Positions 18,331-64,000 of a DNA stretch of 64,000 bases are shown piece by piece. Numbering within the stretch: the stretch's first letter is position 1; each line of letters starts with the position of its first letter. The position numbers and the translations under genes are program-made. Origin of the DNA: Escherichia coli. Its GTDB lineage: Bacteria; Pseudomonadota; Gammaproteobacteria; Enterobacterales; Enterobacteriaceae. A model generated the notes under the pieces. It did no database searches, had not been told where the DNA came from, and saw only the letters and a list, made by a program, of their open reading frames with translations. The stretch is from assembly GCA_005400705.1 (NCBI GenBank), contig GCA_005400705.1_4079.1; one strand, given 5' to 3'.

Positions 18331-19674
18331 TTATTTGTCAGTGAAAGTTATTTTCCAATACCCCTGACGATACACAGGCATGATACTTTTATGCCATTTA
18401 AATTTGTCATTATATCTATAATAACCATTGTCTTCTTTATTATAAATGTAATTTCGTACAGTAGATGGATCAATTAATTGTGCACCATCATTTGTAATTT
18501 TAAACAAATAATTTGATGGGATTTCGGTTTCTTTATAAATGATGTTATGTATACTGTTATTTACATAATATTGTTCAGGTAATGCATTTGAAAGTACTGA
18601 ATCTTTCTGCACAAACCCATGTATAGTGTAATCAACAGTATAATTTGTATTATCAAGCTGTACTATAATTTTGTTGGCATCTTCATTTTCACCATAGGAC
18701 GCTATATGACCTTTTAGTGGGTTGTCTTCTTCAATAGATTGTTGAAATTTAATCCCTACTTTTTTATCATCAAAATTTGGTTCTAGATATTTAAGATATT
18801 TTTCCCATGAATATATTCCACCGTTGGGAGAAACCGCTGATAGCGATTGGCTAACCAAGGTAAGTTGGTATGTATCAGGTAAATTATACTTGGAATTAGT
18901 AATTTCTTCAACTTTAATGCATAAGTTCTTTGGTGTAAAAACATCTGTTATTATATCTGAATAATTTCCCATTTCAAAATCAAATTCGTCACGAGCACCT
19001 TTAATATTTGTAGTAATCTGTTGAATTAATTTTGGTTTTTCAACAATAGCTGGCAAAGAAAACCATATTGTCGTTTCAAATGTTAAAACCATTATATCCA
19101 AATCTGGGTCAGTTCCTTGTGGAAAACCACGAGTAGAAAACTGACAATCTATTAGTTCTACATCACTAAGCGATGTCCAATCTAACGGGTTATCAGATAA
19201 TTGAAGTTGTATACTAGGTGCAAACAAAGTTGAGATTTGTTCGAATAATTCCATTTTAGTTTGAGTTTGAGTTACCCAAATATTCAAATCAAACGTAAAA
19301 GTCCAAGGTACTGGGTTATGTCTTACAATTTTGTATTGTGTGTCAAGTTCTTTTGTGTACTCATTAATAGCAGGGGTCTTGTTAGACCCCATTACTATAG
19401 TTTCGTTGGCATTAGAACGAATATTTTTACGATCCAACTTTAGTTGATTAACACTTATGGTCATTATAGGTGCTGATGGGAGAACATTTTCACTATTCCC
19501 ATTTATAATTGCTGCTGCCATTCTTGAAATATCGGCATAGCGACATGGAACCTTTTTGTATTTTGGGTTTCCATTAGCATCAACACCATTTTGTACTTGA
19601 AATTCACCAAAAACTCTGATAAGATGTTTCAGTACTCTGCGAAATTGACCGTCATAATAATAATCTATTTTCAT
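18331..19674 (-). CDS. virion structural protein (baseplate/tail-associated, unassigned)
   Basis: 447-aa ORF translationally coupled (4-bp overlap) to the upstream structural ORF; no motif recognised. Confidence 0.45.
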   Translation of the reverse strand: MKIDYYYDGQFRRVLKHLIRVFGEFQVQNGVDANGNPKYKKVPCRYADISRMAAAIINGNSENVLPSAPIMTISVNQLKLDRKNIRSNANETIVMGSNKTPAINEYTKELDTQYKIVRHNPVPWTFTFDLNIWVTQTQTKMELFEQISTLFAPSIQLQLSDNPLDWTSLSDVELIDCQFSTRGFPQGTDPDLDIMVLTFETTIWFSLPAIVEKPKLIQQITTNIKGARDEFDFEMGNYSDIITDVFTPKNLCIKVEEITNSKYNLPDTYQLTLVSQSLSAVSPNGGIYSWEKYLKYLEPNFDDKKVGIKFQQSIEEDNPLKGHIASYGENEDANKIIVQLDNTNYTVDYTIHGFVQKDSVLSNALPEQYYVNNSIHNIIYKETEIPSNYLFKITNDGAQLIDPSTVRNYIYNKEDNGYYRYNDKFKWHKSIMPVYRQGYWKITFTDK

Positions 19675-21164
19675 TCTGTGTCCTTATGTATGCGATAAAC
19701 AGTATTAGGTTTAACTGCGTCATGTAATGGAACTTTGTTATCACTATTTACAAACTGTGTAAGTGCTAGGTCTGCACCTTCCCACGGTTTTCTTCCACCA
19801 TAATCAAAAATAACCCATGAATTCTTAGTTGCATTGAATTCCCATAACGTAACTGGGGTATAATCGGTACGATAGAAATAGTCACCATCTACTGCATCAG
19901 TCGGGAACATATTTCCTTCAGGGACAGTACCTCGTGCTGGTGGAATTTTAGGACGATAATCTTGTTGGGAATCAATATTACCATATACACAATTGGACGT
20001 GAATGGTTCATTGACATAAGTTACCTTTGGTTCCCCCCACTTGTCATCATTATACTGATAAATGTGTGGTTCTTTATAAAAAATACAAAAATCTTCCACA
20101 TCTTCTGGTGGAACATCACTGGTAGTATATTCTACATCACAATTTAACCATTTTTTAGCACTTTTATCATATTGATACAACGTATAACCTGTTACATCTG
20201 CGTCATTTTCTTTAAAGAAGAAGTCACCATCCATTGGTTTTCTGGGAAAGATAGTTCCACGCTTGACTTCCACAGAAATCCATGTATCATTAACAAACTC
20301 TTTGAGTACTGGGTATGTTTTTTTCAAAAAATACATTCCATCGGCAGGTTCTTCTGGGAAATCATAACCATTAAGCATATATTTTGATAAATCTACAGTA
20401 TCAGGTCGATCATCATACAAATGTTCATTTGTAAAATGAATGTAGGGTACTTCATCATCAGCTTGCATGATGATACGGTTCATGATATCCATTTCATTGC
20501 CATAGTTACTGTTTTCCGACGAACCATCATCGGTATTTCCATTACCATTATTAGGGTCATCTGGATTATCAGGATAATTATTGTTACCGAGTAAATCGGA
20601 GTACTCAGGTGAGTCGGTTAGCGGTTTAACTCTAAGTTTATAAATGTGATGTTGCCACGTAACCGAGTATCCCTCAGATGTACGAAATGCATCTTGGACG
20701 ACATAGAAGCGGTTTAGACCTGTATCTTTACCCAATACATCAAAATCACGTAAATTTGGTAGTTCTATCACATCCCCTGGCATGATTTTTCTACCTAAAC
20801 GCTGCATCATTGTATTATAATGGATTGTGATGTCCATAGTGTTGAAATTAAAGAACAATCCTGGGATTTTCAAGTCTGGAGTTGCTTCTTGAACTTGATA
20901 GACACAACTAAGTGTGATAGCTTCAAGGTTGTAGTTTCTGTTTGGTGTGTCACCAAAAATTAAATCGCCAATACTTGACACAACTGATCCTGAAGATGTA
21001 TAATCACCTCCATAGGATAAGTCAGTGTTGTCAGCAACTTGTTTTGGACCGACATATGCATAAAGCCACATGTCAACTCCACCAATGTTGTATTGTTCAG
21101 CAATGGCAGAATCAATGAACTTGTAATCATTGGTTCTACCTTTTTTCCACATTCTATATGTCAT
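19671..21164 (-). CDS. virion structural protein with three DG-x-(Y/F)F repeats
   Basis: ORF-track 19671..21176 begins with TTG; start moved to ATG 21164 which has a GGAGA RBS; repeated EPADGMYF / KPMDGDFFF / DAVDGDYFY units. Confidence 0.45.
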   Translation of the reverse strand: MTYRMWKKGRTNDYKFIDSAIAEQYNIGGVDMWLYAYVGPKQVADNTDLSYGGDYTSSGSVVSSIGDLIFGDTPNRNYNLEAITLSCVYQVQEATPDLKIPGLFFNFNTMDITIHYNTMMQRLGRKIMPGDVIELPNLRDFDVLGKDTGLNRFYVVQDAFRTSEGYSVTWQHHIYKLRVKPLTDSPEYSDLLGNNNYPDNPDDPNNGNGNTDDGSSENSNYGNEMDIMNRIIMQADDEVPYIHFTNEHLYDDRPDTVDLSKYMLNGYDFPEEPADGMYFLKKTYPVLKEFVNDTWISVEVKRGTIFPRKPMDGDFFFKENDADVTGYTLYQYDKSAKKWLNCDVEYTTSDVPPEDVEDFCIFYKEPHIYQYNDDKWGEPKVTYVNEPFTSNCVYGNIDSQQDYRPKIPPARGTVPEGNMFPTDAVDGDYFYRTDYTPVTLWEFNATKNSWVIFDYGGRKPWEGADLALTQFVNSDNKVPLHDAVKPNTVYRIHKDTE

Positions 21165-21206
21165 GATTGTCTCCAAAATAAATCGGGTATATCTTTATTT
21201 ACCTTG

Positions 21207-21234: not shown

Positions 21235-21274
21235 GTTTATTAATTAGAGTGACGTGAATCACATAGGAGAATAC

Positions 21275-23563
21275 ATGAATCTTACTCAATTGTTCAAAAA
21301 AAGCGACGAACTGGCAACATCTCTAGGTCATACATTCTTGACTATTGACCACGTAAGTGCCACAGTACTGACTATTGATAGCATCAAGAACGTATTTGAA
21401 GATATGAACATTGATGCAGACAAACTGCACAACCGCCTAATGAACTATCTTAAAAATACAACAGTTCCACATGCACCAAAAAGTGTTAAAGATGAAGACG
21501 CGAATCGCACTTCACTTCTAGTGAATCGCGTTGTACATGAGCTTTCAAAAAAATCAGTTATTGAACAACTAAAAAGTGATGATTTTTCGATTGATGCATA
21601 TTTTGTTCTATTCGAATGTCTGTCTTTCCCTAACACAGCACTAGAAGCTGCGTTAAAAGAAGAAGGTGTTAGCTGTACTGAAGCTGCACGTGCATTACAG
21701 AAACACGTTGAGTCACTTGATAAGGGTATCAACTTACAAAGTATTAATGACGAACCGATTGGAGATAAAAAAGTGGCCCAACAGCAGCAATCATCTAAAC
21801 AAAAAGGTTTGGAAGACTATACAACGAATCTAACTGCTCTTGCAAAAGAAGGCAAACTAGATCCTATGATTGGTCGCCAGAAAGAATTGTCTGCATTGAT
21901 TGAGACTCTTGCTCGCAAAACCAAAAAGAATGCTATTCTCACTGGTGAAGCTGGTGTAGGTAAAACACAAATCATCGACGGGCTTGCACAAGCTATTGCT
22001 GATGGTAACGTACCTGAACACTTGAAAGACGTTGAAATTCTTTCACTAAATGTTGGTGCATTGACTGCTGGTACTAAGTATCGTGGTGAGTTTGAAGAAC
22101 GCATCGACAATTTGCTAAAAGAACTAAAGAAACGTGAAAATACTATTGTTTTCATTGATGAAATTCATATTATGGTTGGGGCTGGTTCCGCAAGTAATGG
22201 TTCTATGGACATGAGCAATATGCTTAAGCCAGCACTTTCACGTGGTGAGATTCGTGTAATTGGTGCAACAACATATGATGAATATCGTAAAAATATCGAG
22301 AAAGATAGTGCATTAACTCGTCGTTTTATGAAAATTGACGTAGTTGAGCCGACAATTGATGAAACTCGTGCAATTGTTAATGGTTTGAAACCAACGTATG
22401 AAAAATTCCATAATGTTGAGTTCACATCTGATGCAATGGATGCTGTAATTTCTCTCAGTGATAAATTCCTGAAGAATAAGCACTTCCCAGATAAAGCAAT
22501 TGATCTAATGGACGCTGCTGCTGCAAAAGTTCGTTCACGTGACAACAATAGTAAGCTTATTACTGCCAATTTGATTCAAGAAGTTGTTGCTGGTATTGCC
22601 AATTTGGATATCAACGTGGTTGCATGTACTGAAAGTGATCGTATGCGTAATCTACCAGATGCACTACGCTCACGTGTATACGGTCAAGAGGAAGCTATTC
22701 AAAAATTAGTTGATAACGTGATGGTAGCTCGTGCAGGACTGCGTGACAAATCTAGTGTTCAGGGTGCATTTATGTTTGTTGGACCATCTGGCACTGGTAA
22801 AACAGAAATTACCAAAGCATTAGCAGATGCAACTGGTGCGGAACTGATTCGCTTTGATATGTCAGAATTTTCTCAAGAACATACTGTTTCTAAACTAATT
22901 GGTTCACCTCCAGGTTATGTTGGTCATGATTCTGGTAACGGTTTACTGTTGGATAAAATTGAGCAGTTCCCTAATGCAGTACTGTTACTTGATGAAATTG
23001 AAAAAGCAGATCGTAAAGTCCTACTAACCTTCCTACAGGTTTTGGATGAAGGTCGCCTGACTGGTTCACAAGGTAAAACTGTATATTTTAATAACGTAAC
23101 TGTTATTATGACTACAAACCTTGGTGCAGCAGATTCAACGAAGCGTAGTATTGGTATGAGCGGTAGTGATACTGCACAAGACAAGGCAATTAAAGCATTC
23201 TTGCCACCAGAGTTCATTAACCGTATTGATAGTATCGTTACGTTTAAAGACCTAAGCAGTGAAGCTATTGACAGCATCATTGATAAGTTCATGGGCAGTT
23301 TGAATGAACAAGTCAAAGACCGCAATGTTAAAGTTACATTGACAAAAGCTGCACGTGAATGGCTTGCGAAAAATGGGGTAAAAGTTGGCATGGGTGCACG
23401 TCCAATGAAACGTACCATTGAACAAAACATTCGTGTACCACTAGCTAAAGAAATGTTGTGTGGTTCACTTGTTAATGGTGGAAACATTACATTTGATGTT
23501 ATTGATGGTAAAATCGGTATTAAACCGAAACGTTCCAAAGCTGTAGATAAAGCACTGGCATAA
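21275..23563 (+). CDS. clpA: ClpA-type two-ring AAA+ unfoldase (Clp ATPase)
   Basis: Clp N-domain; D1 Walker [10 protein letters not shown]1 pore loop [10 protein letters not shown]1 Walker B IVFIDEIH; D2 Walker [10 protein letters not shown]2 pore loop GYVGHD, D2 Walker [10 protein letters not shown]; long colinear similarity to E. coli ClpA as recalled from memory; start set at ATG 21275 (AGGAGA RBS) rather than the GTG at 21254. Confidence 0.9.
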
Positions 23564-48787: not shown

Positions 48788-48793
48788 AGCGTT

Positions 48794-48822
48794 TTGTCCT
48801 GTTTCTGTAAATAATGTATATT
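48794..48822 (+). promoter_or_regulatory. putative sigma70 promoter of the homing endonuclease gene (TTGTCC-N17-TATATT)
   Basis: -35-like TTGTCC 48794-48799 and -10-like TATATT 48817-48822 upstream of ATG 48848; weaker match than the other promoters. Confidence 0.3.
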
Positions 48823-48847
48823 AAAAAGTTTTGTGAGGTACACAAGA

Positions 48848-49804
48848 ATGGCTAAAATTACACAACAACAATTCATAGATAAATCAATGAATATTCATGG
48901 TAGTATTTACACATACAATAAAACAATATATGTCAATGCACACCATCCAATAACTGTTACGTGTAACATTCACGGTGACTTCACAGTAGTTCCTAATAAA
49001 CACATTTCTGCAAAACAAGGTTGTCCAGTTTGTTCTGATATTGCAAAGAAAGAACGAAAGTCTAAAAAATCTCTGGGGTCATTCTTCACTGAAGCTACCG
49101 AAGTTCATGGTGATAAGTATGATTACTCAAAAGTGTTTTTTAACATTCGTTCAGAAAAGATTACTATTATATGCAAAGAAAAAGGTCATGGTGAATTTAA
49201 TCAAGTAGTTAGTAATCATCTATCTGGACAAGGTTGCCCTGAATGTGCCAAAATTCAAAATGGATTAAAGAAGAGAACTCCAGAAGATGTGTTCTTTGAA
49301 GATTGTAAGTTCATACACATGGATAATTATGATTACTCTAATACAAAATATAATGGCATGTATGAAACCATTACACCATTATGTAAGAGACATGGGGAAT
49401 TCACCGTACTAGCTACTAAGCATTATCATAGAAAACAAGGGTGTCCAGTTTGTTCAGACCAAGAACTAAAATCAAAACCTGTTATTGAAATTCAGAATTT
49501 TTTAAAAACGTGTGATATAATGTTTGAAATGGAAAAGAAATTTGATAGTTGTAAAAACATCAATCATTTACCATTTGATTTTTATATTCCTGAACTTAAT
49601 CTACTAATAGAATATGATGGTATCCAACACTTCAAACCAATAGAATACTTCGGTGGAGAAGAAGGTTTAGCTGAACAACAACGAAATGATGAAATTAAGA
49701 ATAAGTATTGTTATGATAATAATATTACTTTACTTAGAATAAAGTATTCAGATGACCACATTAAAATTATAAAAGACTTCATATCAAAAAATATAAATTA
49801 TTGA
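48848..49804 (+). CDS. free-standing homing endonuclease-like protein: zinc-ribbon repeat array plus Vsr/PD-(D/E)xK-type nuclease domain
   Basis: Three ~45-aa repeats ending in GCPxC (YDYS...HG.F...GCPVCSD) followed by LLIEYDGIQHF...RND.IKN...LLRI resembling the very-short-patch-repair-like endonuclease fold; ORF-track start is GTG at 48833; ATG 48848 has a GAGG RBS. Confidence 0.6.
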   Translation: MAKITQQQFIDKSMNIHGSIYTYNKTIYVNAHHPITVTCNIHGDFTVVPNKHISAKQGCPVCSDIAKKERKSKKSLGSFFTEATEVHGDKYDYSKVFFNIRSEKITIICKEKGHGEFNQVVSNHLSGQGCPECAKIQNGLKKRTPEDVFFEDCKFIHMDNYDYSNTKYNGMYETITPLCKRHGEFTVLATKHYHRKQGCPVCSDQELKSKPVIEIQNFLKTCDIMFEMEKKFDSCKNINHLPFDFYIPELNLLIEYDGIQHFKPIEYFGGEEGLAEQQRNDEIKNKYCYDNNITLLRIKYSDDHIKIIKDFISKNINY

Positions 49805-49816
49805 ATAGTTTTTATG

Positions 49817-49850
49817 AACCAAGTAATGTTTTGTTACTTGGTTTTTTTAT
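49817..49850 (+). terminator. intrinsic terminator
   Basis: AACCAAGTAA / TTACTTGGTT 10-bp stem with 7-nt loop followed by TTTTTTTAT. Confidence 0.75.
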
Positions 49851-49897
49851 ACTTCAAAAATGTACTAAGTACTTTTTTATTTTTTTATGATATTAGT

Positions 49898-49925
49898 GGG
49901 AAGATTTTAAAAATGGTGCTATAAT
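49898..49925 (+). promoter_or_regulatory. sigma70-type early promoter (GGGAAG-N16-TGcTATAAT) with no ORF downstream
   Basis: GTGGGAAG 49896-49903, 16-nt spacer, extended -10 TGcTATAAT 49917-49925; near-identical core to the gp55 promoter. Confidence 0.55.
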
Positions 49926-49973
49926 GTTTGTTGTAGTAATGACAATCCTGTTGAATGCAGAAATGCATATAAA

Positions 49974-50060
49974 TTAGAACCTGATCCTATCGAAAATGTA
50001 GATGGCAGATGAGCAGTTCAACAGTGCGATGAGCAAAAGAAACCCGTTAGATGTGGGCAT
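49974..50060 (-). CDS. candidate 28-aa hydrophobic peptide (MPTSNGFLLLIALLNCSSAIYIFDRIRF), antisense to the putative ncRNA
   Basis: ATG 50058-50060 on the minus strand preceded by GAGGGG at 8-nt spacing; predicted single hydrophobic helix; no convincing minus-strand promoter found. Confidence 0.2.
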   Translation of the reverse strand: MPTSNGFLLLIALLNCSSAIYIFDRIRF

Positions 50061-50362
50061 AGTTTGAACCCCTCACGGCAATGCGGCTCAATAAAGAACT
50101 CCGATAAGCATACAGAGAGTTCCTAGATAGACATATAAGGATCGCACCTTACCAGATTTGCTAAGGGAGTTTATTAAGTGATTTTAATAAACAGCCTGAA
50201 GTTTGATTGTATAGACTTTCAGGTGAGTGTCAGGATGATTAAGACTGACGACCGTTGCACATGACTGCGATAGAGAGAAACAGAGCAACCCGCTTTCGTT
50301 CTTAATATATTTTTAAGAAATTCGCAATACAATAAATGCTGAAACCATCAGCGTCAAGAAAT

Positions 50363-50388
50363 AGAGACTTCATTGTCTCTTTTTTATT
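50363..50388 (+). terminator. intrinsic terminator (AGAGAC-TTCATT-GTCTCT, TTTTTTATT)
   Basis: 6-bp stem with 6-nt loop followed by a T-tract; a second GC-rich 9-bp hairpin (50393-50414, UGCG loop, one U-G pair) follows with no T-tract. Confidence 0.6.
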
Positions 50389-50600
50389 GTCTTCATTCCC
50401 CTGCGGGGGGATGAAAATGTCCTCAACAAATCCCGTCAAGTATTAAATCTTTTAAAGTTCTTTATAATTAATTTAATTAAATGAATATGAGTTACGTAGT
50501 AACGAATATTCTTCAGCTAACGAATGAAATGAGTTAGATGAATCTAATAATATTAAAATTAATCCTTTCATAATTCAATTCAAATAATTCTGTAGTTTAA

Positions 50601-50630
50601 AACCAAAAAAACCAGCAACAATGTGCTGGC
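50601..50630 (-). terminator. intrinsic terminator after the 69-aa/278-aa operon
   Basis: CCAGCA-CATTGT-TGCTGG hairpin on the minus strand followed by TTTTTTTGG. Confidence 0.6.
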
Positions 50631-50640
50631 TATATGAAAA

Positions 50641-57721: not shown

Positions 57722-58837
57722 ATGTCTAAATTAGAAAAGCTTCTAAAAGAATCATCTCTTTCTGATGAGGCAAAACAGCTAATTCAGGAAGCATGGAATG
57801 AAGAAAAGAATACACTAGCCGCAGAGATGCGTGAAGAAATGAAAGGCCGTTATCAGCAAGATTTGGCTGAACTAACCGAAGGTTTGAACACTATGGTTAC
57901 TCAAGTCATTGCTGAAGAAATGGGTGCTGTATATGAAGAGAAAAAACGTCTCGTTGAAGATCGTGTAACTCTACGTAAAACACTAAGCAATTTCTCTGCG
58001 TTTTCAAACTCTGTTTTGGCTGAAGAAGTTAAACAAATGCGTAAAGAACGTAAGCATCTTCATGAATGCATGGGTAAATTCGTTAATTTTTCTAACGGTA
58101 TCCTAGCAGAAGAGCTAAAAGAATTCCACACTGAAAAACGTCAACTAGTTGAAACTCGCGTTAAACTACTTGCTGAAGGTTCACGTCAAATTGCTGAAGC
58201 TCGTAATAACTTCATCAAACGTACATCTGAAAGTGCTGCTAAATATATTGCAGAAACCACTCAGAAGAATCTATATGCGTTGAAACAAGATCTAGTGGAA
58301 GCAAAACAAAATATGTTTGGTCGTAAAATCTTTGAAGCATTTGCTCAAGAGTTTAATGTCAAACAATTTAATGAAAACTCATTGCTACGTTCCCTAACTG
58401 AATCAATTAAATCTAAAGAAGATGAAATTGCTCAAGTTAAGCAAGAACTACATGAAACTGCTAATGCGGTTAAAGCTGCTAAAACCAAACTACGTATTAT
58501 GGAAGATGCACAAGCACGTAATGCGATTATGTCTGAACTAGTAAAACCACTAACTGCACAGCAAAAACAAATTATGGAATCTCTTCTAGCTACTTCACCT
58601 ACTGAAAAGCTTAAAGAAGATTTCAGCAAGTACCATAAGTCAGTACTTAACGGTACTAAAGTAAATGAATCTGCTACCACTCGTCAAGCAGTTCAGTCTT
58701 CCGCTAAGAAAACTCTTGCAGAAGGTAAAGTAATCACTGGCAACCGTCAGGCTATTGTTGAAAGCGAAGAAATGACCGCTGACGATATGGCATTCCTAAA
58801 AGAACTCGATGTTCTTTCAGGTATCAATAAAAAATAA
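57722..58837 (+). CDS. prohead scaffold protein (gp22-like)
   Basis: 371 aa, charged and coiled-coil-like (Glu/Lys/Ala/Leu-rich), between protease and major capsid genes. Confidence 0.6.
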   Translation: MSKLEKLLKESSLSDEAKQLIQEAWNEEKNTLAAEMREEMKGRYQQDLAELTEGLNTMVTQVIAEEMGAVYEEKKRLVEDRVTLRKTLSNFSAFSNSVLAEEVKQMRKERKHLHECMGKFVNFSNGILAEELKEFHTEKRQLVETRVKLLAEGSRQIAEARNNFIKRTSESAAKYIAETTQKNLYALKQDLVEAKQNMFGRKIFEAFAQEFNVKQFNENSLLRSLTESIKSKEDEIAQVKQELHETANAVKAAKTKLRIMEDAQARNAIMSELVKPLTAQQKQIMESLLATSPTEKLKEDFSKYHKSVLNGTKVNESATTRQAVQSSAKKTLAEGKVITGNRQAIVESEEMTADDMAFLKELDVLSGINKK

Positions 58838-58875: not shown

Positions 58876-58883
58876 TATAAATA
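58876..58883 (+). promoter_or_regulatory. T4-type late promoter (TATAAATA) of the major capsid gene
   Basis: Exact TATAAATA 45 nt upstream of the capsid ATG, followed by an AAGGAGA RBS. Confidence 0.55.
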
Positions 58884-58928: not shown

Positions 58929-60104
58929 ATGTCACAACTACTAAATGAATCCAAATGGGTAGCAGTAAAAGAGAAACTAGTTGAAGGTCTACAGGGTACT
59001 CGTAAGTCTGTAATGGAAACTGTTCTTGATAACCATCGTAAAGTTATGCTAACTGAATCCGCAACTTCTGGTGCAACTACCGCTGGTAACATCGCTACTC
59101 TAAACAAAGTGATTCTACCAATTATGCGTCGTGTAATGCCAACCGTTATTGCTAACGAAATCATCGGTGTTCAACCTATGACTGGTCCAGTTGGTCAGAT
59201 CCACACCCTACGTGTACAATATGCTGATAACGCACCTGGTGTAATCGCTGGTGAAGAAATGCTTTCTCCATACAAAATCGCTAAATCTTACTCTGGTGAT
59301 CTAAATGCGGATAATAGCAACCCACAAGCTGCTCCTACTAGCCAACTAGAAGGTACTATGGGTCGTCGCGTTAACATCCGTATTCTACGTGAAACTGTTG
59401 AAGCGAAATCTCGTCGTCTATCTGCACGTTGGACTGTTGAATCTGCACAAGATGCTCAATCCCAACATGGTGTTGACGTTGAAGCAGAACTAATGGCTGC
59501 AATCGCTCAAGAAGTTACTGTAGAAATCGACCAAGAGCTACTAAGCCGTCTACGTGCACTACCTGGTGCTGCTGCTGTAACTTATGACCAATCTAAAGTT
59601 ACTGGTGTTGCAACCTTCGTTGGTGATGAGCACGCTGCTCTAGCTACTCTAATTAACCGTCAAGCAAACGAAGTTGCTCGTCGTACTAAGCGTGGTGCTG
59701 CAAACTGGGCTGTTGTTTCCCCAACTGCACTAACCATTCTACAATCTGCTACTACTTCTAGCTTTGCACGTACCACTGAAGGTACTTTTGAAGCACCAAC
59801 TAACGTTAAGTTTGTAGGTACTCTAAACAGCACTATGCGTATTTTCGTTGATACCTATGCTAGTGATGCAGAAGATATTCTAATTGGTTATAAAGGTAAT
59901 GCGGAAACTGATGCTGGTGTATTCTATTGCCCATACATCCCACTAATGGCTTCTGGTACTGTAATGGACCCTAACACTGGTGAACTCGTGACCACATTTT
60001 TAACACGCTATGGCTACGTTCAGCTAACCGACAGTACTTCATCTCTTGGTAACGCTGCTGACTACTACAGCAAAATCGCTATCAAAAACGTTACTTTCAT
60101 GTAA
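58929..60104 (+). CDS. major capsid protein (gp23-like)
   Basis: 391 aa; PTVIANEIIGVQPMTGPVGQIHTLRVQY, EAKSRRLSARWTVESAQD and GYKGNAETDAGVFYCPYIPL parallel T4 gp23 (PNLIAFDICGVQPMNSPTGQVFALRAVY, EAKSRQLKAAYSIELAQD, GYKGPNEMDAGIYYAPYVAL) as recalled from memory. Confidence 0.85.
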   Translation: MSQLLNESKWVAVKEKLVEGLQGTRKSVMETVLDNHRKVMLTESATSGATTAGNIATLNKVILPIMRRVMPTVIANEIIGVQPMTGPVGQIHTLRVQYADNAPGVIAGEEMLSPYKIAKSYSGDLNADNSNPQAAPTSQLEGTMGRRVNIRILRETVEAKSRRLSARWTVESAQDAQSQHGVDVEAELMAAIAQEVTVEIDQELLSRLRALPGAAAVTYDQSKVTGVATFVGDEHAALATLINRQANEVARRTKRGAANWAVVSPTALTILQSATTSSFARTTEGTFEAPTNVKFVGTLNSTMRIFVDTYASDAEDILIGYKGNAETDAGVFYCPYIPLMASGTVMDPNTGELVTTFLTRYGYVQLTDSTSSLGNAADYYSKIAIKNVTFM

Positions 60105-60146: not shown

Positions 60147-60177
60147 TAGGGACTCTTCGGAGTCCCTTTTCTTTTGT
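60147..60177 (+). terminator. intrinsic terminator after the major capsid gene
   Basis: AGGGACTC-TTCG-GAGTCCCT hairpin (UUCG tetraloop) followed by TTTCTTTTGTGTT. Confidence 0.8.
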
Positions 60178-60190
60178 GTTAAAAAAATGC

Positions 60191-60219
60191 TTGACAGAAT
60201 ATTTTTAATTATATATAAT
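60191..60219 (+). promoter_or_regulatory. consensus sigma70 promoter (TTGACA-N17-TATAAT)
   Basis: Perfect -35 TTGACA 60191-60196 and perfect -10 TATAAT 60214-60219 with a 17-nt spacer, between the capsid terminator and the homing endonuclease ORF. Confidence 0.65.
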
Positions 60220-60252
60220 TATCAAATCGAAACCAAGTTGAGTAAATTGAAA

Positions 60253-61341
60253 ATGTTAATTGAAAATTTCAAAAAGAAAATGAATGAAAAATATGGAATG
60301 TATGGTGAGTTTGATTTTAATTCGATGATTTTTAAATCTAGCAAAACTACCTTGAAATGTAACAAATGTGGTATTGAAAATACAAAGTCTGCAATTCGTC
60401 ATATCTCATGTACTTGCTCTAACTGTTATAGTAACATGTCCCAGCGTTCCAATAATGATGATTTCATTTTAAAAGTTGAAAAGAAATTCGGGACTGAAAA
60501 ATTTAAATTTGATAAATTGGTTTATGTTAATGCAAAAACTCCAGTTACAATATTCTGCACTAAACATAATGGTTATTTTCACATAACACCAAATAAGTTA
60601 TTAACTGGTGCTGGATGTAACGTTTGTAATATTAATGTAGTGCATACGAATAATGAATTTATAAAAATTGTTAAACGTAATTATGGTGATAAATTTAGTT
60701 TCCAAAAAACCAACTATATTAACAGAACAACAAAAGTCACAGTGCATTGCAATGAAGGAAATCATGATTGGGAAGTTGATCCAAAAACATTGATACTTGG
60801 GAAGTCAGGATGTGGTATATGTTCAGGTAAAGGTGGGAGAACAACCGAGCAATTTATTGCAGAAGCTGTAAAAGTTCATAACAATAATTATGATTACTCA
60901 TCTGTTATGTATGAGCATAGTGAAAAAATGGTCGAGATAAAATGCAACAATTGTAAAAATATTTTTCATCAGCAACCTAAAGCACATTTGACAGGTCGTG
61001 GTTGTCCAAAATGCGGTAAGTATGGTTATCAGACTTCCAAGCCTGGATATTTTTATGTACAGAAACTAACTAATAAAGATAAAACCGTTTACAAATATGG
61101 AATCACTGGTGATATGAAACGTAGAGTGAACGAACAGAGTCGTGATTCTGAATTCGTCCATGAAGTACTAGTAGAACGTTTCTTCGAAGATGGTAATAAA
61201 CCCCTCTTACTGGAAAAGTTTATCAAGCAGTACATTGAAAGTGGAGTAGTAAGTACTGAAGAGTTGCCGTCAGGATTTACTGAAACGTTTGATGAAAAGT
61301 ATCTAAAATCTGTACTGGAAATTGTAAATACCTTTAAGTAA
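60253..61341 (+). CDS. free-standing homing endonuclease-like protein: zinc-ribbon repeat array plus T5orf172 (GIY-YIG-like) nuclease domain
   Basis: Four ~45-aa repeats ending in GC..C (F.F...Y.N.....V...C...H..F...P..L.G.GC.VC); C-terminal GYFYVQKL...YKYGITGDMKRRVNEQ resembles T5orf172; ORF-track start 60046 would overlap the capsid gene and terminator, so ATG 60253 downstream of the promoter is preferred. Confidence 0.6.
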   Translation: MLIENFKKKMNEKYGMYGEFDFNSMIFKSSKTTLKCNKCGIENTKSAIRHISCTCSNCYSNMSQRSNNDDFILKVEKKFGTEKFKFDKLVYVNAKTPVTIFCTKHNGYFHITPNKLLTGAGCNVCNINVVHTNNEFIKIVKRNYGDKFSFQKTNYINRTTKVTVHCNEGNHDWEVDPKTLILGKSGCGICSGKGGRTTEQFIAEAVKVHNNNYDYSSVMYEHSEKMVEIKCNNCKNIFHQQPKAHLTGRGCPKCGKYGYQTSKPGYFYVQKLTNKDKTVYKYGITGDMKRRVNEQSRDSEFVHEVLVERFFEDGNKPLLLEKFIKQYIESGVVSTEELPSGFTETFDEKYLKSVLEIVNTFK

Positions 61342-61364
61342 ACAATCTAAAGGAGTTGACACGG

Positions 61365-61715
61365 ATGTTAACTGTATACAAATTTAAAAGAGAAGAGTAC
61401 TTAAAGAGCCAGTACTCAAATATAGAAATAAATGTTCCTTATGGTACGTTAGTTGGATACGATGAAGCCACTGAAACATTGTATTATAATGATGATAGAT
61501 TAGATTATAGTTTAGATTCTTTCATAGAAGATATACTTAATACACATACTGAAGATATGTTGTATGAAGAATACATCGATCATTATAGAGAACGTATGTC
61601 GCTGCTGCATTCTGATGCTCCTGTGCTAAACATTGCACAAGAACCCTCGGAATTTCAGCCACATAATCCTTTTCAACGTTTAATTGATATTGGTTTAAAA
61701 TTCACTATTAATTGA
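61365..61715 (+). CDS. hypothetical protein
   Basis: ORF-track 61356 start is TTG; ATG 61365 has an AGGAG RBS at 9 nt; no family recognised. Confidence 0.45.
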   Translation: MLTVYKFKREEYLKSQYSNIEINVPYGTLVGYDEATETLYYNDDRLDYSLDSFIEDILNTHTEDMLYEEYIDHYRERMSLLHSDAPVLNIAQEPSEFQPHNPFQRLIDIGLKFTIN

Positions 61716-61754
61716 TAGATAAATATCTCCATATTAATGATGGAGATTGAATCT

Positions 61755-62063
61755 ATGTCACAGATATGTTATGTTATAATAAACTCTGCATGGCCTGACT
61801 ATGTTAAGATTGGTTTCACTTCTAAATCTGAAATGACAGAGCGTTTGAGAACGTATCAGACAGCTACCCCGTTTCGTGATTTTGAAGTTTATCATGAAGT
61901 TCACTTTGAAGACGCACGTTTAGCTGAAAAAGAGATACATAAAAGGCTTAAACAAATGAATGCAACTAGACAACCAAACACGGAGTGGTTTAAAATGTCT
62001 AAAAAGATAGCAGCAAACATCATTGATTCTGTGTGGGATGATATGGATAACGACTTGCTATAG
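61755..62063 (+). CDS. stand-alone T5orf172 (GIY-YIG-like) domain protein
   Basis: ICYVIINSAWPDYVKIGFTSKSEMTERLRTYQT fits the T5orf172 core; start set at ATG 61755 (GGAGA RBS at 8 nt) rather than 61737. Confidence 0.55.
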   Translation: MSQICYVIINSAWPDYVKIGFTSKSEMTERLRTYQTATPFRDFEVYHEVHFEDARLAEKEIHKRLKQMNATRQPNTEWFKMSKKIAANIIDSVWDDMDNDLL

Positions 62064-62103
62064 GAATAAATATAGTATATATTAATCATAAAGGGATTTA
62101 TAC

Positions 62104-63729
62104 ATGAGCATAAGTTTTAATAACCCATTGGATACAATGACCAGTACTGGTGCTAATGGATCTTTAGAACTAATAGTGCTTGGTGGTACACCAACTAACC
62201 CAAGACCTATTCGTTTTAATTCGTCATCAGTTATTATACCAGTACAAACTTTACCTACTGGTGAACAAGGTGCAATGGTTTTTGATCGAAGCGAATTAGT
62301 TTTGAAGTATCATAACGGTACAAGTTGGGTTGCAGTATATGATACTGATACTATTTTGGAACCAATTAGAATTTCATTAGATGAAGTAAACCGAAAATTA
62401 AATTTAAAAGTAGAAAGTGTAACATACAGTAGTAGTACTGTTCCTAGTGCAAGTATTAGTGGAACAACCTTAAACATTGTATTCCCTACTGCTTCTAGTG
62501 GTGGTTCTGGTCCAACTGGTCTTTACACTTCACTTAAACCTGGTGCTATTACACAATATTCATTGACTTCTGGACAAACTGTTGCTAGTATTCGTGAACA
62601 GATGTCTGGAGTAACTAATGGTCAAAGTGGTCGTAATGGTTCACAAGGTTCTCCGTGGAAAACTTCTGATGGTTGGTGTTTTGCTGATGGTATGTGGTGG
62701 CAATGGGAGGGGGAAAATGGTACAATCACTAAACAAGTTCCAAATCTTAACCAAGAAGCATACTTGAAAGGCATTACCACATCAGGCGTAACTAAAACTG
62801 ATAGTGTGATTGCAAGTAGTGCATCAATTAGTGGTACTGCGATATCAATTGCTCAACTTCCACCGCACTCATTTAGTTTCAGTGGAACTACTGGTGCTGC
62901 TGGTCGTCATGGTCATAGCCAAGCACTAAGAGGTATGGACAGAAGTGGTCTTAATGCGTTAACATCCAGTAACGACAACGGAATCCCAACTGTAATTAAT
63001 AACATTAACGAAGCACCTGATCACGTGCATAGTTTCAGTGGTTCAACCAATACCGTTGGTAGTGGACAAGCACATACCCACGGAATTAGCAATATTGACG
63101 TACCACACTTTAATGTGGCATACTTATATAACATTGCTGAGTCTAACGTTGCATTGAGTGAAAAAGTTGCAAACACCCGTTATGTACTTAAAACTGGTGA
63201 TGTAATGACTGGTTCATTGACTATTGCTAACAGTGCTTCTATACGTTCAAATGACACTTCATTAGTACTTTACTTCCGTAACGCTACTAATGGTGAACGT
63301 GCAGCAATTTATCATAATTCATCTAACAATACATTACGTTTGAGAAGTAATGGTGGTTCGGAAGTTACAATTAACTCTTCTGGTGTACTTTATGCCCCAT
63401 CAGTTACTGGTGCATCATTGTCTATTTCTGGAAACACTGCAACTGTTGCCAGTAAAAACATCGTAAGATCTATTAACGGTAACAACGCTGATGTAAACGG
63501 TAACGTAACTTTAACACTAGGTGCTGTACAAGATGTTCGTTTAAGTAAAAGAACAACTACGCGACATGTTCCTGATTCTTCTTGGAACTATGTACCTGAA
63601 GGTGCTACACTTGATGGGTTGTTTATTTCAGTAAATGGTAGTTCAGGTACACACGTTGAAGGTTTGAGTTGGAGATATACACAAAAACTTGTAAATGGTG
63701 TATGGACTAACGTAGTAGTGGAGTCTTAA
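62104..63729 (+). CDS. tail fibre protein with phage tail-collar domain
   Basis: 541 aa; WCFADGMWWQWEGENG...AQLPPHSFSFSGTTGAAGRHGHSQ...APDHVHSFSGS...AHTHGI resembles the tail-collar fold of T4 gp12-type fibres; VLKTGDVMTGSLTI fibre motif. Confidence 0.7.
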   Translation: MSISFNNPLDTMTSTGANGSLELIVLGGTPTNPRPIRFNSSSVIIPVQTLPTGEQGAMVFDRSELVLKYHNGTSWVAVYDTDTILEPIRISLDEVNRKLNLKVESVTYSSSTVPSASISGTTLNIVFPTASSGGSGPTGLYTSLKPGAITQYSLTSGQTVASIREQMSGVTNGQSGRNGSQGSPWKTSDGWCFADGMWWQWEGENGTITKQVPNLNQEAYLKGITTSGVTKTDSVIASSASISGTAISIAQLPPHSFSFSGTTGAAGRHGHSQALRGMDRSGLNALTSSNDNGIPTVINNINEAPDHVHSFSGSTNTVGSGQAHTHGISNIDVPHFNVAYLYNIAESNVALSEKVANTRYVLKTGDVMTGSLTIANSASIRSNDTSLVLYFRNATNGERAAIYHNSSNNTLRLRSNGGSEVTINSSGVLYAPSVTGASLSISGNTATVASKNIVRSINGNNADVNGNVTLTLGAVQDVRLSKRTTTRHVPDSSWNYVPEGATLDGLFISVNGSSGTHVEGLSWRYTQKLVNGVWTNVVVES

Positions 63730-63730
63730 T

Positions 63731-64000
63731 ATGAAAACGTATACAAATTTCAAAAAATATATACCAGTAGAAAAAAAACATGGAGATAATGTTCTTTATC
63801 TATTGTCAGATGAGGGTATTGACTGGTATGATTGTCAAACCGAATTCAGACAAGATACTTTAAAAGTTCAGTACTCTGACGATGGTTATATTGCACAAGC
63901 ATCATATGATGTAACATTGTTAGTACCGTATGGATACAGTGTTTCTGAGTTGGAGCATGATGGAGATGAAGATGAAGTAGTTGGTAAAATCTATGATGGA
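63731..64000 (+). CDS. tail fibre assembly chaperone (Tfa-like), 5' partial
   Basis: Open frame from ATG 63731 to the window edge (not in the ORF track, no stop); MKTYTNFKKYIPVEKKHGDNVLYLLSDEGIDWYDCQTEFRQDTLKVQY matches the N-terminal pattern of lambda/T4-type Tfa chaperones. Confidence 0.6.
   Translation, partial: MKTYTNFKKYIPVEKKHGDNVLYLLSDEGIDWYDCQTEFRQDTLKVQYSDDGYIAQASYDVTLLVPYGYSVSELEHDGDEDEVVGKIYDG

Follow-up and report, generated by a model that had tools for sequence, protein, structure and literature searches.

A putative free-standing homing endonuclease gene behind the major capsid gene of an Asteriusvirus-like jumbo phage

Directly behind the major capsid gene of a large coliphage lies a gene for a zinc-finger protein with a nuclease-like C-terminus, which raises the question of whether this gene is a mobile homing element and, if so, what exactly moves. 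We analyzed a 64,000-nucleotide stretch of DNA (contig GCA_005400705.1_4079.1 of assembly GCA_005400705.1, hereafter the window), in which a preliminary description made from the sequence alone had placed a homing-endonuclease cassette at positions 60147-62063. The 4.8 kb of the window around this locus matched 63 phage records at 85-93% identity, most of them from Escherichia/Salmonella jumbo phages of the genus Asteriusvirus (121Q, PBECO4, SP27), and the source is, judging by these matches, an Asteriusvirus (121Q/PBECO4-like) jumbo coliphage of ~350 kb. The locus carries, from left to right, genes for a prohead protease, a scaffold protein (57722-58837) and the gp23-like major capsid protein (58929-60104, plus strand, as for all features below unless noted; 391 amino acids; Pfam Gp23, E 1.3e-89), followed by three open reading frames (ORF1, ORF2 and ORF3) and a tail fibre gene. 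Our analysis suggests that ORF1, its promoter and a short 3´ tail together are probably a free-standing T5orf172-type homing endonuclease gene inserted between the capsid terminator and ORF2.

Extent, distribution and promoter of the ORF1 cassette

The limits of the mobile unit were read from genomes in which the site is empty. PBECO4 and fEgEco12 carry a capsid gene, the same terminator, ORF2, ORF3 and a tail fibre gene without ORF1, and the distance from the capsid stop codon to the ORF2 ATG is 118 bp in PBECO4 and 110 bp in fEgEco12, compared to 1260 bp in the window. Both phages have an unrelated 5´ untranslated region (5´UTR) of roughly 35-40 bp in place of the cassette. The alignments put the left edge just past the T-run of the capsid terminator (~60178) and the right edge at the ORF2 ATG (61365), giving a cassette of 60178-61364 that comprises the promoter, ORF1 and a 23-nt tail with the ribosome-binding site of ORF2; the originally proposed span of 60147-62063 was thus too wide. 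The intrinsic terminator of the capsid gene (60148-60177; hairpin at 60148-60167 with an 8-bp GC-rich stem and TTCG loop, then the T-run) is kept whether the site is occupied or empty and delimits the insertion on the left; the window and ECO103 4-12-1 align at 99% identity from 33265 up to 60179, where the alignment ends. On the right, the last 27 nt of the cassette, counted from the G of the stop codon (GTAAACAATCTAAAGGAGTTGACACGG), hold the ribosome-binding site now used by ORF2, and this tail is common to every occupied allele and absent from the empty sites.

Comparison with SP27 showed flanks that are 97-100% identical, with 66-75% identity in the zinc-finger array and 82-87% in the nuclease domain of the cassette. 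We considered and rejected a recombination breakpoint of the phage backbone at the nuclease gene (identity to ECO103 4-12-1 is 99% up to 60179 and 87% thereafter); ORF2 and ORF3 are again 97-100% identical to the ECO103 4-12-1 lineage, and the divergent island therefore is the cassette itself. A single-nucleotide polymorphism at the start of ORF2 was also rejected as a marker of occupied and empty sites, as it follows the backbone.

The 5´ end of the 121Q-type element has a relationship of its own to ORF2. The nuclease 5´UTR and first ~11 codons of 121Q (L002:2785-2860) are homologous to the 5´UTR and first codons of ORF2 in PBECO4 (L001:2757-2835), with a local alignment score of 34 versus 16.6 ± 2.7 for shuffled sequences (0/2000 shuffles), and it looks as if a 121Q-type element landed inside the start of ORF2, bringing a replacement start. 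For the window allele, the ORF1 5´ end was not significant as a duplicate of the ORF2 5´ end (152/2000 shuffles). Another junction, unlike the empty sites of PBECO4 and fEgEco12, is found at the empty site of the Salmonella phage SD-1_S14 (L024:1277-1350), where the terminator T-run abuts a TTG start of ORF2 with no 5´UTR or ribosome-binding site. The SD phage genomes are 25-40 kb shorter, and the junction may be a secondary deletion; it was not accepted as a precise deletion of a window-type cassette, given that its flanks are PBECO4-like and its origin ambiguous.

Site states were assigned from alignment spans and fetched loci for ~31 phages. The site is occupied in roughly 24 and empty in 7 (PBECO4, fEgEco12, CMSTMSU and SD-1/2/6/15), and both states are found in a single species, Asteriusvirus PBECO4, in which PBECO4 itself lacks the gene and SP27, UB and slurp01 carry one. 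ORF1 is thus variably present among close relatives; a synteny comparison of the capsid 3´ region had been proposed in the preliminary description as a check. At least four allele classes share the one site: the 121Q type and the window type, each with four repeats, a three-repeat type of 306 amino acids and a type of 332 amino acids. Four-repeat genes (362-368 amino acids) are present in 121Q, SP27, UB, CRJP21, BF17, EcMJ, Turkey3, WPEC3 and others, three-repeat genes (~306 amino acids) in E9.1, ECO103 4-12-1, slurp01, G17, Ecwhy_1, WPEC5 and others, and the 332-amino-acid gene, ~25% identical to the other alleles, in SHEFM2K and TH47. The window allele has ~70% amino acid identity to 121Q, and its identity to alleles of the phage collection is 65-71%; its repeat 4 resembles the E9.1 class and its repeats 1-3 the 121Q class, and by these comparisons it is a lineage of its own.

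The same position is variably filled in more distant phages. The site is empty in the Yersinia phage fHe-Yen9-04, holds a three-repeat gene 55% identical to ORF1 in the Salmonella phage Munch, and in the Cronobacter phage GAP32 holds GAP32_251 (L010:3995-4228), a 77-amino-acid ORF directly behind the capsid gene. GAP32_251 matches ORF1 residues 310-361 (37% identity, E 5e-11) and is the degenerate leftover of an ORF1-like gene, corresponding to the second half of its nuclease domain. Metagenomic and jumbo-phage homologues with 82% and 43% identity likewise lie directly behind a gp23 gene. Two marks of homing genes, presence or absence at one precise site and a degenerate copy that fits a cycle of invasion and decay, are therefore found here. 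ORF1 lies between a terminator and the next ATG, outside any intron or intein, with its neighbour genes intact, and searches of the whole window with Rfam (gathering threshold) and ARAGORN gave no intron, non-coding RNA or tRNA. The earlier proposal that the element is free-standing rather than intron-borne stands on the intergenic position of ORF1 and the lack of an Rfam hit; the argument then offered for it, that thymidylate synthase is uninterrupted, is a non sequitur, though the gene (1766-2695) is indeed uninterrupted.

As already described, a consensus sigma70-type promoter directly follows the capsid terminator (TTGACA-N17-TATAAT at 60191-60219, 12/12 consensus positions, with an A-tract just 5´). 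The 64 kb contain two perfect sigma70 sites, where chance would give 0.15, and shuffled sequences never yielded two; a generic promoter scan found 17 weak sites, compared to 17.7 in shuffled sequence. Among occupied alleles, the promoter match is 12/12 in the window, SP27, BF17 and EcMJ, 11/12 in 121Q, E9.1 and Munch, and 9/12 in SHEFM2K, and the distance from the -10 element to the ATG is 29-35 nt in the alleles scoring 11-12/12. The best match is 8/12 at the empty sites of PBECO4 and fEgEco12 and 9/12 in fHe-Yen9-04 (empty) and GAP32 (remnant). The -35 and -10 hexamers with their 17-nt spacing are conserved among homologous loci. The promoter belongs to the cassette, being found only where the nuclease gene is, and transcription from it would be early, by host RNA polymerase. 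No terminator was found after ORF1, and the promoter may read into the late genes ORF2, ORF3 and tail fibre. The other perfect site in the window, TTGACA-N18-TATAAT at 20975-21004, is inside a minus-strand ORF (19671-21176), ~250 nt upstream of a plus-strand ORF (21254-23563).

The ORF1 protein and the adjoining capsid sequence

ORF1 (60253-61341, 362 amino acids) most likely starts with the ATG at 60253, in agreement with the database protein P0001 (362 amino acids, 99% identical); a 431-amino-acid version with a TTG start, which overlaps the capsid gene, is an ORF-calling artefact. The N-terminal part (60253-61023) consists of four zinc-finger repeats of ~60 amino acids each (residues ~1-60, 65-127, 130-192 and 195-257), recognized by a repeat hidden Markov model (HMM; four hits, E 5e-19 to 1e-27), by a Pfam match above threshold to DUF4379 ("treble clef zinc finger", 30.4 bits, cutoff 24.5) and by four Cys/His metal ligands in each repeat; a match to CapR (17.3 bits) is sub-threshold. 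Four GC..C repeats had been noted in this region. The count of four is borne out by the HMM, while the GC..C motif itself is restricted to three repeats (GCNVC, GCGIC and GCPKC), the first being degenerate (C36xxC39 ... C53xC55xxC58). Nine Cys residues in repeats 2-4 are invariant in an alignment of 45 homologues, and the AF2 model has a mean predicted local distance difference test score (pLDDT) of 89 over the array, which, by analogy with related zinc-finger proteins, is presumed to bind DNA. A Foldseek search with residues ~1-257 of the model matched 6yxx_E2, from a Trypanosoma brucei mitoribosomal assembly intermediate (E 6e-5, 279 aligned columns), with a low template modelling (TM) score, and this match may reflect a similar repeated zinc-ribbon architecture.

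The C-terminal domain (residues 258-362, with the stop codon 61024-61341) had been assigned to the T5orf172 (GIY-YIG-like) family, and several lines of evidence agree with this assignment. The direct match to Pfam PF10544 (T5orf172) is weak (16.4 bits, below the cutoff of 20; E 0.013) and covers profile positions 1-39 only. Among 45 full-length homologues, however, 14 match T5orf172 (E up to 0.01, best 3.4e-5) and 13 match MUG113, and hhalign of the ORF1 C-terminal profile against the ORF3 family gave 76% probability (E 2.4e-5) with the YIG-R-E core aligned. PHROG 681, "endonuclease", spans the whole of ORF1 (2.6e-73), and ORF3 matches the C-terminus of the same profile; NCBIfam returned nothing for ORF1, ORF2 or ORF3. 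The domain has the three-stranded sheet and flanking helices of a GIY-YIG fold as well as the motif residues, namely the strand-1 Tyr, the x-K/Y-x-G "YIG", the helix-1 Arg and the Glu. In the 45 homologues, Y268 is conserved in 44, K281 in 43, G283 in 45, R291 in 40, and E321 and E344 in all. We infer that E321 or E344 is the catalytic Glu and that the C-terminus is a nuclease domain of the T5orf172/GIY-YIG superfamily, a predicted endonuclease.

ORF1 is intact, and purifying selection acts on its two domains (ratio of nonsynonymous to synonymous divergence, dN/dS, 0.04-0.2). Conservation is highest in the nuclease domain (89-92% amino acid identity between alleles, dN/dS ~0.05), and synonymous divergence (dS) is saturated in the zinc-finger array and unsaturated in the nuclease domain, which points to recombination within ORF1.

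Evidence that the cassette moves together with flanking DNA came from the capsid gene itself. The capsid protein is identical in the window, SP27, 121Q, E9.1, SHEFM2K, PBECO4 and ECO103, and in these seven phages a patch at the 3´ end of the gene (59981-60047) has 28/67 variable sites, compared to 26/1109 elsewhere in the gene (hypergeometric p 2e-23), all changes in the patch being synonymous. Haplotypes were compared in 20 genomes representing two capsid backbones, which differ at ~53 positions within capsid nt 1-880. Phages with the same nuclease class on different backbones differ at 5.6 positions in the patch, and those with the same backbone and different classes at 14.8; over the control region, capsid nt 1-880, the corresponding numbers are 53 and 3.3. 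When class labels were shuffled within backbones, the observed patch contrast was reached in 0/20000 trials. The patch haplotype follows the nuclease allele class and not the backbone, which is the co-conversion signature expected of homing, and makes the patch a co-conversion tract and candidate target region. In the four-repeat haplotype a Ser codon is changed from TCA to AGT, a switch also carried by GAP32; such a change is impossible by synonymous single steps and thus suggests that the codon was acquired from a diverged donor. To the right of the cassette, ORF2 varies with the backbone, and the exchange unit therefore extends from ~59981 through the cassette to the ORF2 ATG, the pattern to be expected if a double-strand break within the patch or upstream of it were repaired.

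Comparable behavior is known for the T4 SegA-G proteins, free-standing GIY-YIG homing endonucleases responsible for intronless homing and localized marker exclusion. The T4 seg genes are intergenic, lie beside essential genes and spread through the repair of double-strand breaks, in the course of which flanking markers are co-converted. The cuts made by SegF and SegG are remote from their own genes, and Seg cleavage can be as much as a few hundred bp away from where the gene is inserted, which would fit a patch ~130-200 bp upstream of the cassette.

Known relatives and competing accounts of ORF1

T5orf172 homing endonuclease genes carrying one or more CapR, DUF723 or DUF4379 zinc-finger domains have been described (Barth, Dunham & Seed 2023, PMC10448857). 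A capsid gene is found in 31% of their neighbourhoods, repeat loss and domain swapping between alleles occur, and the nuclease genes lie at boundaries of genetic exchange (PMC10448857). In ICP1, gene numbering places gp121, which encodes a T5orf172 protein with a CapR-like domain, beside the capsid gene gp122. Like ORF1, the ICP1-type genes are free-standing, encode N-terminal zinc repeats and a C-terminal T5orf172 domain, and are often beside capsid genes (PMC10448857). ORF1 differs in coming from another phage lineage, a ~350-kb Asteriusvirus coliphage, with only distant sequence similarity (tblastn of ORF1 residues 203-361 against ICP1 tcgB, 32% identity, E 3e-10); the main text of PMC10448857 makes no mention of Asteriusvirus, 121Q or jumbo phages, and a literature search found no paper on this locus. 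Two further T5orf172-related proteins have been characterized. ICP1 Odn (Gp88), an active endonuclease with a RepA_N DNA-binding domain and a target in the satellite origin, cuts DNA in vitro and loses activity when the conserved Glu is mutated (PMC8263062), and PLE CapR, a domesticated zinc-finger DNA binder that has lost the nuclease, binds DNA sequence-specifically and needs its four Cys (PMC8096241). Neither is a homing element at a capsid-flanking site.

The closest relatives are positional orthologues, 121Q gp604 (YP_009102191.1, "endonuclease") and its counterparts in SP27, BF17, vB_Ec-M-J, E9.1 and other phages. They share with ORF1 the site, the architecture, the cassette 3´ tail and ~90% amino acid identity in the nuclease domain. 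ORF1 differs from them in overall identity (65-71%), in the zinc-finger array (51-63%, with saturated dS), in the 5´ end and in its fourth repeat, which resembles the E9.1 class rather than 121Q. Public records label genes of this type "endonuclease", "DUF4379 domain-containing protein" or "hypothetical". The cassette is a well-resolved case of an already described type of homing gene and no new kind of system.

On the homing account, host RNA polymerase would transcribe ORF1 early from the consensus promoter, and the four-repeat array would bind specific DNA, as suggested by its homology to CapR, DUF723 and DUF4379. The GIY-YIG-like domain would then cut the locus of a co-infecting phage without this allele, probably in or near the capsid 3´ end, and recombinational repair would transfer the cassette to the recipient phage along with ~125-200 bp from the 3´ end of the capsid gene. 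The population footprint of this last step is seen in the presence and absence of the cassette, the several alleles, the remnant, and the linkage of the capsid haplotype across two backbones.

Several points weigh against this account. fEgEco12 is empty yet carries the patch haplotype of the three-repeat class, and SP27 lacks half of the four-repeat haplotype, making the linkage imperfect. The linkage shows joint movement by recombination and is no proof that the ORF1 nuclease initiates the break; cleavage, the target site and homing of ORF1 or its Asteriusvirus homologues are still predictions from sequence. Finally, purifying selection and intact genes in ~24 of the 31 sampled phages could signal a function useful to the phage.

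This last point also speaks for ORF1 as a domesticated or beneficial site-specific nuclease, kept for example for cutting competitors or satellites as is ICP1 Odn, with its patchiness reflecting accessory-gene turnover. Such a role would go with the purifying selection on both domains, with an ORF that has stayed intact in most of the genomes sampled and across several old lineages of alleles, with a strong and conserved early-type promoter, and with the recruitment of T5orf172 proteins for anti-satellite defence (PMC8263062). Nevertheless, we consider it unlikely, since all alleles occupy exactly one site even at 25-43% identity, a decayed remnant is present in GAP32 and the adjacent capsid sequence is co-inherited across backbones, all hallmarks of homing-type, site-specific spread. 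The selfish and beneficial readings are compatible in so far as marker exclusion benefits the carrier. A quite improbable alternative is that ORF1 mainly acts as a DNA-binding regulator, with an inactive or vestigial nuclease, and tunes the neighbouring capsid or tail genes. A double role of this kind is known for I-TevI, which doubles as a repressor of its own gene. The ORF1 repeats belong to the zinc-finger family of CapR (11/45 homologues match CapR, in addition to the sub-threshold match of ORF1), CapR is a homing-endonuclease-derived repressor of the ICP1 capsid operon (PMC8096241), and ORF1 adjoins the capsid gene, upstream of late genes without a late promoter of their own. A regulator, however, would not be expected to have the nuclease domain as its most conserved part, with Y268, G283, R291, E321 and E344 invariant or nearly so, and a purely regulatory role leaves the empty sites, the remnant and the co-conversion unexplained.

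It is hardly credible that the promoter match arose by chance in AT-rich intergenic DNA and that ORF1 is transcribed by another route, such as read-through from the late promoter of the capsid gene. The region is indeed AT-rich and contains as many weak promoter-like sites as shuffled sequence, but a perfect site is rare by chance in a window of this size, and an 11-12/12 site stands 29-35 nt from the ATG in 7/8 occupied alleles of diverged phages, the exception being SHEFM2K. The two empty Asteriusvirus genomes have no 11-12/12 site, and a strong terminator separates the promoter from the capsid gene.

For the homing endonuclease gene favored here, the analysis defines the cassette boundaries, the gene-linked promoter, the several classes of allele that share the site and the co-conversion patch in the capsid gene. 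The locus extends the picture of T5orf172/zinc-repeat homing drawn from ICP1 and marine phages to Asteriusvirus and provides a clear case, found in nature, of intronless homing among jumbo coliphages of ~350 kb. Two predictions follow, a cut site near 59981-60047 and E321 or E344 as catalytic residue, and homing would explain local mosaicism beside the capsid and tail fibre genes of phages considered for therapy. A more far-reaching joint reading is possible, though we would not count on it: the site may be an arena of old, competing nuclease alleles with a synonymously recoded, "immune" 67-nt capsid target, a cassette promoter that retimes late genes, and ORF3 as a domesticated module. If this were true, each nuclease allele would have its own zinc-finger array and its own synonymous "immune" version of the 67-nt capsid recognition or cleavage site. 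The terminator-less early promoter ahead of ORF2, ORF3 and the tail fibre gene could also retime virion gene expression. Separately, ORF3 could be a nuclease module that was domesticated long ago and now serves the phage in a core role.

Neighbouring genes and a second nuclease cassette

ORF2 (61365-61715, 116 amino acids, phrog_15724) is a conserved resident gene outside the mobile unit. It is present in occupied and empty genomes, and the copies in GAP32, Munch and fHe-Yen9-04 are 28-33% identical. ORF3 (61755-62063, 102 amino acids) had been included in the cassette as a second, stand-alone T5orf172 ORF. It is a bona fide T5orf172-only protein (Pfam T5orf172, 50.3 bits, cutoff 20, E 3.7e-13) with an ATG start and a good Shine-Dalgarno sequence, but it lies outside the cassette and is fixed in all relatives, and GAP32, fHe-Yen9-04 and Munch, which represent three other phage groups, have it as well. 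In every Rak2-like jumbo phage that was sampled, empty-site genomes included, ORF3 lies beside the tail fibre gene, and its 32 database clusters, many on ~350-kb contigs, are all 100-108 amino acids long and 63-93% identical. Across genera it is 68-78% identical, far above the level of ORF2, with conserved motif residues and a dN/dS of ~0.03. These comparisons indicate that ORF3 is a fixed, mini-nuclease-like core gene of Rak2-like jumbo phages that is not mobile now, which corrects the label "homing endonuclease" that public records sometimes give it; its distant ancestor may have been such an enzyme.

A second free-standing nuclease cassette with its own terminator is located at 48789-49865 (ORF 48848-49804). 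The encoded protein has three repeats of the ORF1 zinc-finger family and a Vsr-like (I-Bth0305I-type) nuclease domain with a Vsr-like PD-(D/E)xK fold, in which D244, E255, H261 and D281 are invariant and are candidate catalytic residues. Its array aligns with that of ORF1 (tblastn E 8.7e-16, shared repeat HMM), and its repeats are as similar to the ORF1 repeats as the latter are among themselves. The expectation that three repeat arrays would align was right for two, which are all the window contains; an HMM made from all seven repeats and run against the six frames of the window found no third array, with a best E value of 0.27 outside the two ORFs. In line with the suggestion that one array has been fused to two nuclease chemistries, Vsr-like at 48848 and T5orf172 in ORF1, arrays of this kind occur among the listed homologues in combination with T5orf172/MUG113, DUF559/Vsr-like and other domains, and the inference of domain shuffling within the family is sound. 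Among I-Bth0305I/Vsr-like ("EDxHD") homing endonucleases, I-Bth0305I is called a mobile intron protein in its PDB entry; the ORF 48848-49804 protein differs in being free-standing and fused to three DUF723/DUF4379 repeats. The second cassette was found only in ECO103 4-12-1, EC22.5-2 and possibly TH47 among ~35 related genomes, and it replaces 58 bp of PBECO4. Its left flank (endonuclease VII gene) is 85% identical to PBECO4 and its right flank 98%, an inequality that places this cassette, too, at a boundary of genetic exchange.

The genes around ORF1 are of the late type. A perfect T4-type late promoter, TATAAATA, lies upstream of the capsid gene (58876-58883). Just five copies of TATAAATA occur in the window, three of them directly upstream of the scaffold, major capsid protein and baseplate hub genes, and none ahead of ORF2, ORF3 or the tail fibre gene (including 61342-61364 and 62064-62103). 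TCTAAATA, found in the 5´UTRs of empty sites, was rejected as a late promoter, as it is not enriched and late genes use perfect TATAAATA. Farther downstream, the tail fibre gene (62104-63729, phrog_13229, E 5e-251) ends in a segment (63301-64000, the 3´ end and beyond) that is 94-98% identical to BF17, EcMJ and fEgEco12 and ~65% identical to PBECO4-type phages. The rest of the region, unlike this segment, resembles the PBECO4 lineage. By these identities, the 3´ end is a separate mosaic segment, apparently a host-range module swap unrelated to the nuclease cassette.

We also noted a long gap directly behind the second nuclease ORF, 836 bp without any ORF of at least 45 amino acids (49805-50640, core ~49930-50390). 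An extended -10-like element, TGCTATAAT, at ~49917-49925 is followed by ~430 nt of GC-richer sequence and a hairpin with a T-run at 50357-50385. Nucleotide conservation of ~77% was detected for 49960-50447 in Munch, 7t3, SE_PL, PHA46 and fENko-Kae01, with partial matches in Erwinia phages; the counterparts are mostly without an annotated gene, and each record has two matching places. Rfam gave no match for the gap, and its RNA folding z-score was -2.68. Collectively, these features make the gap a candidate phage non-coding RNA, possibly present in more than one copy per genome.

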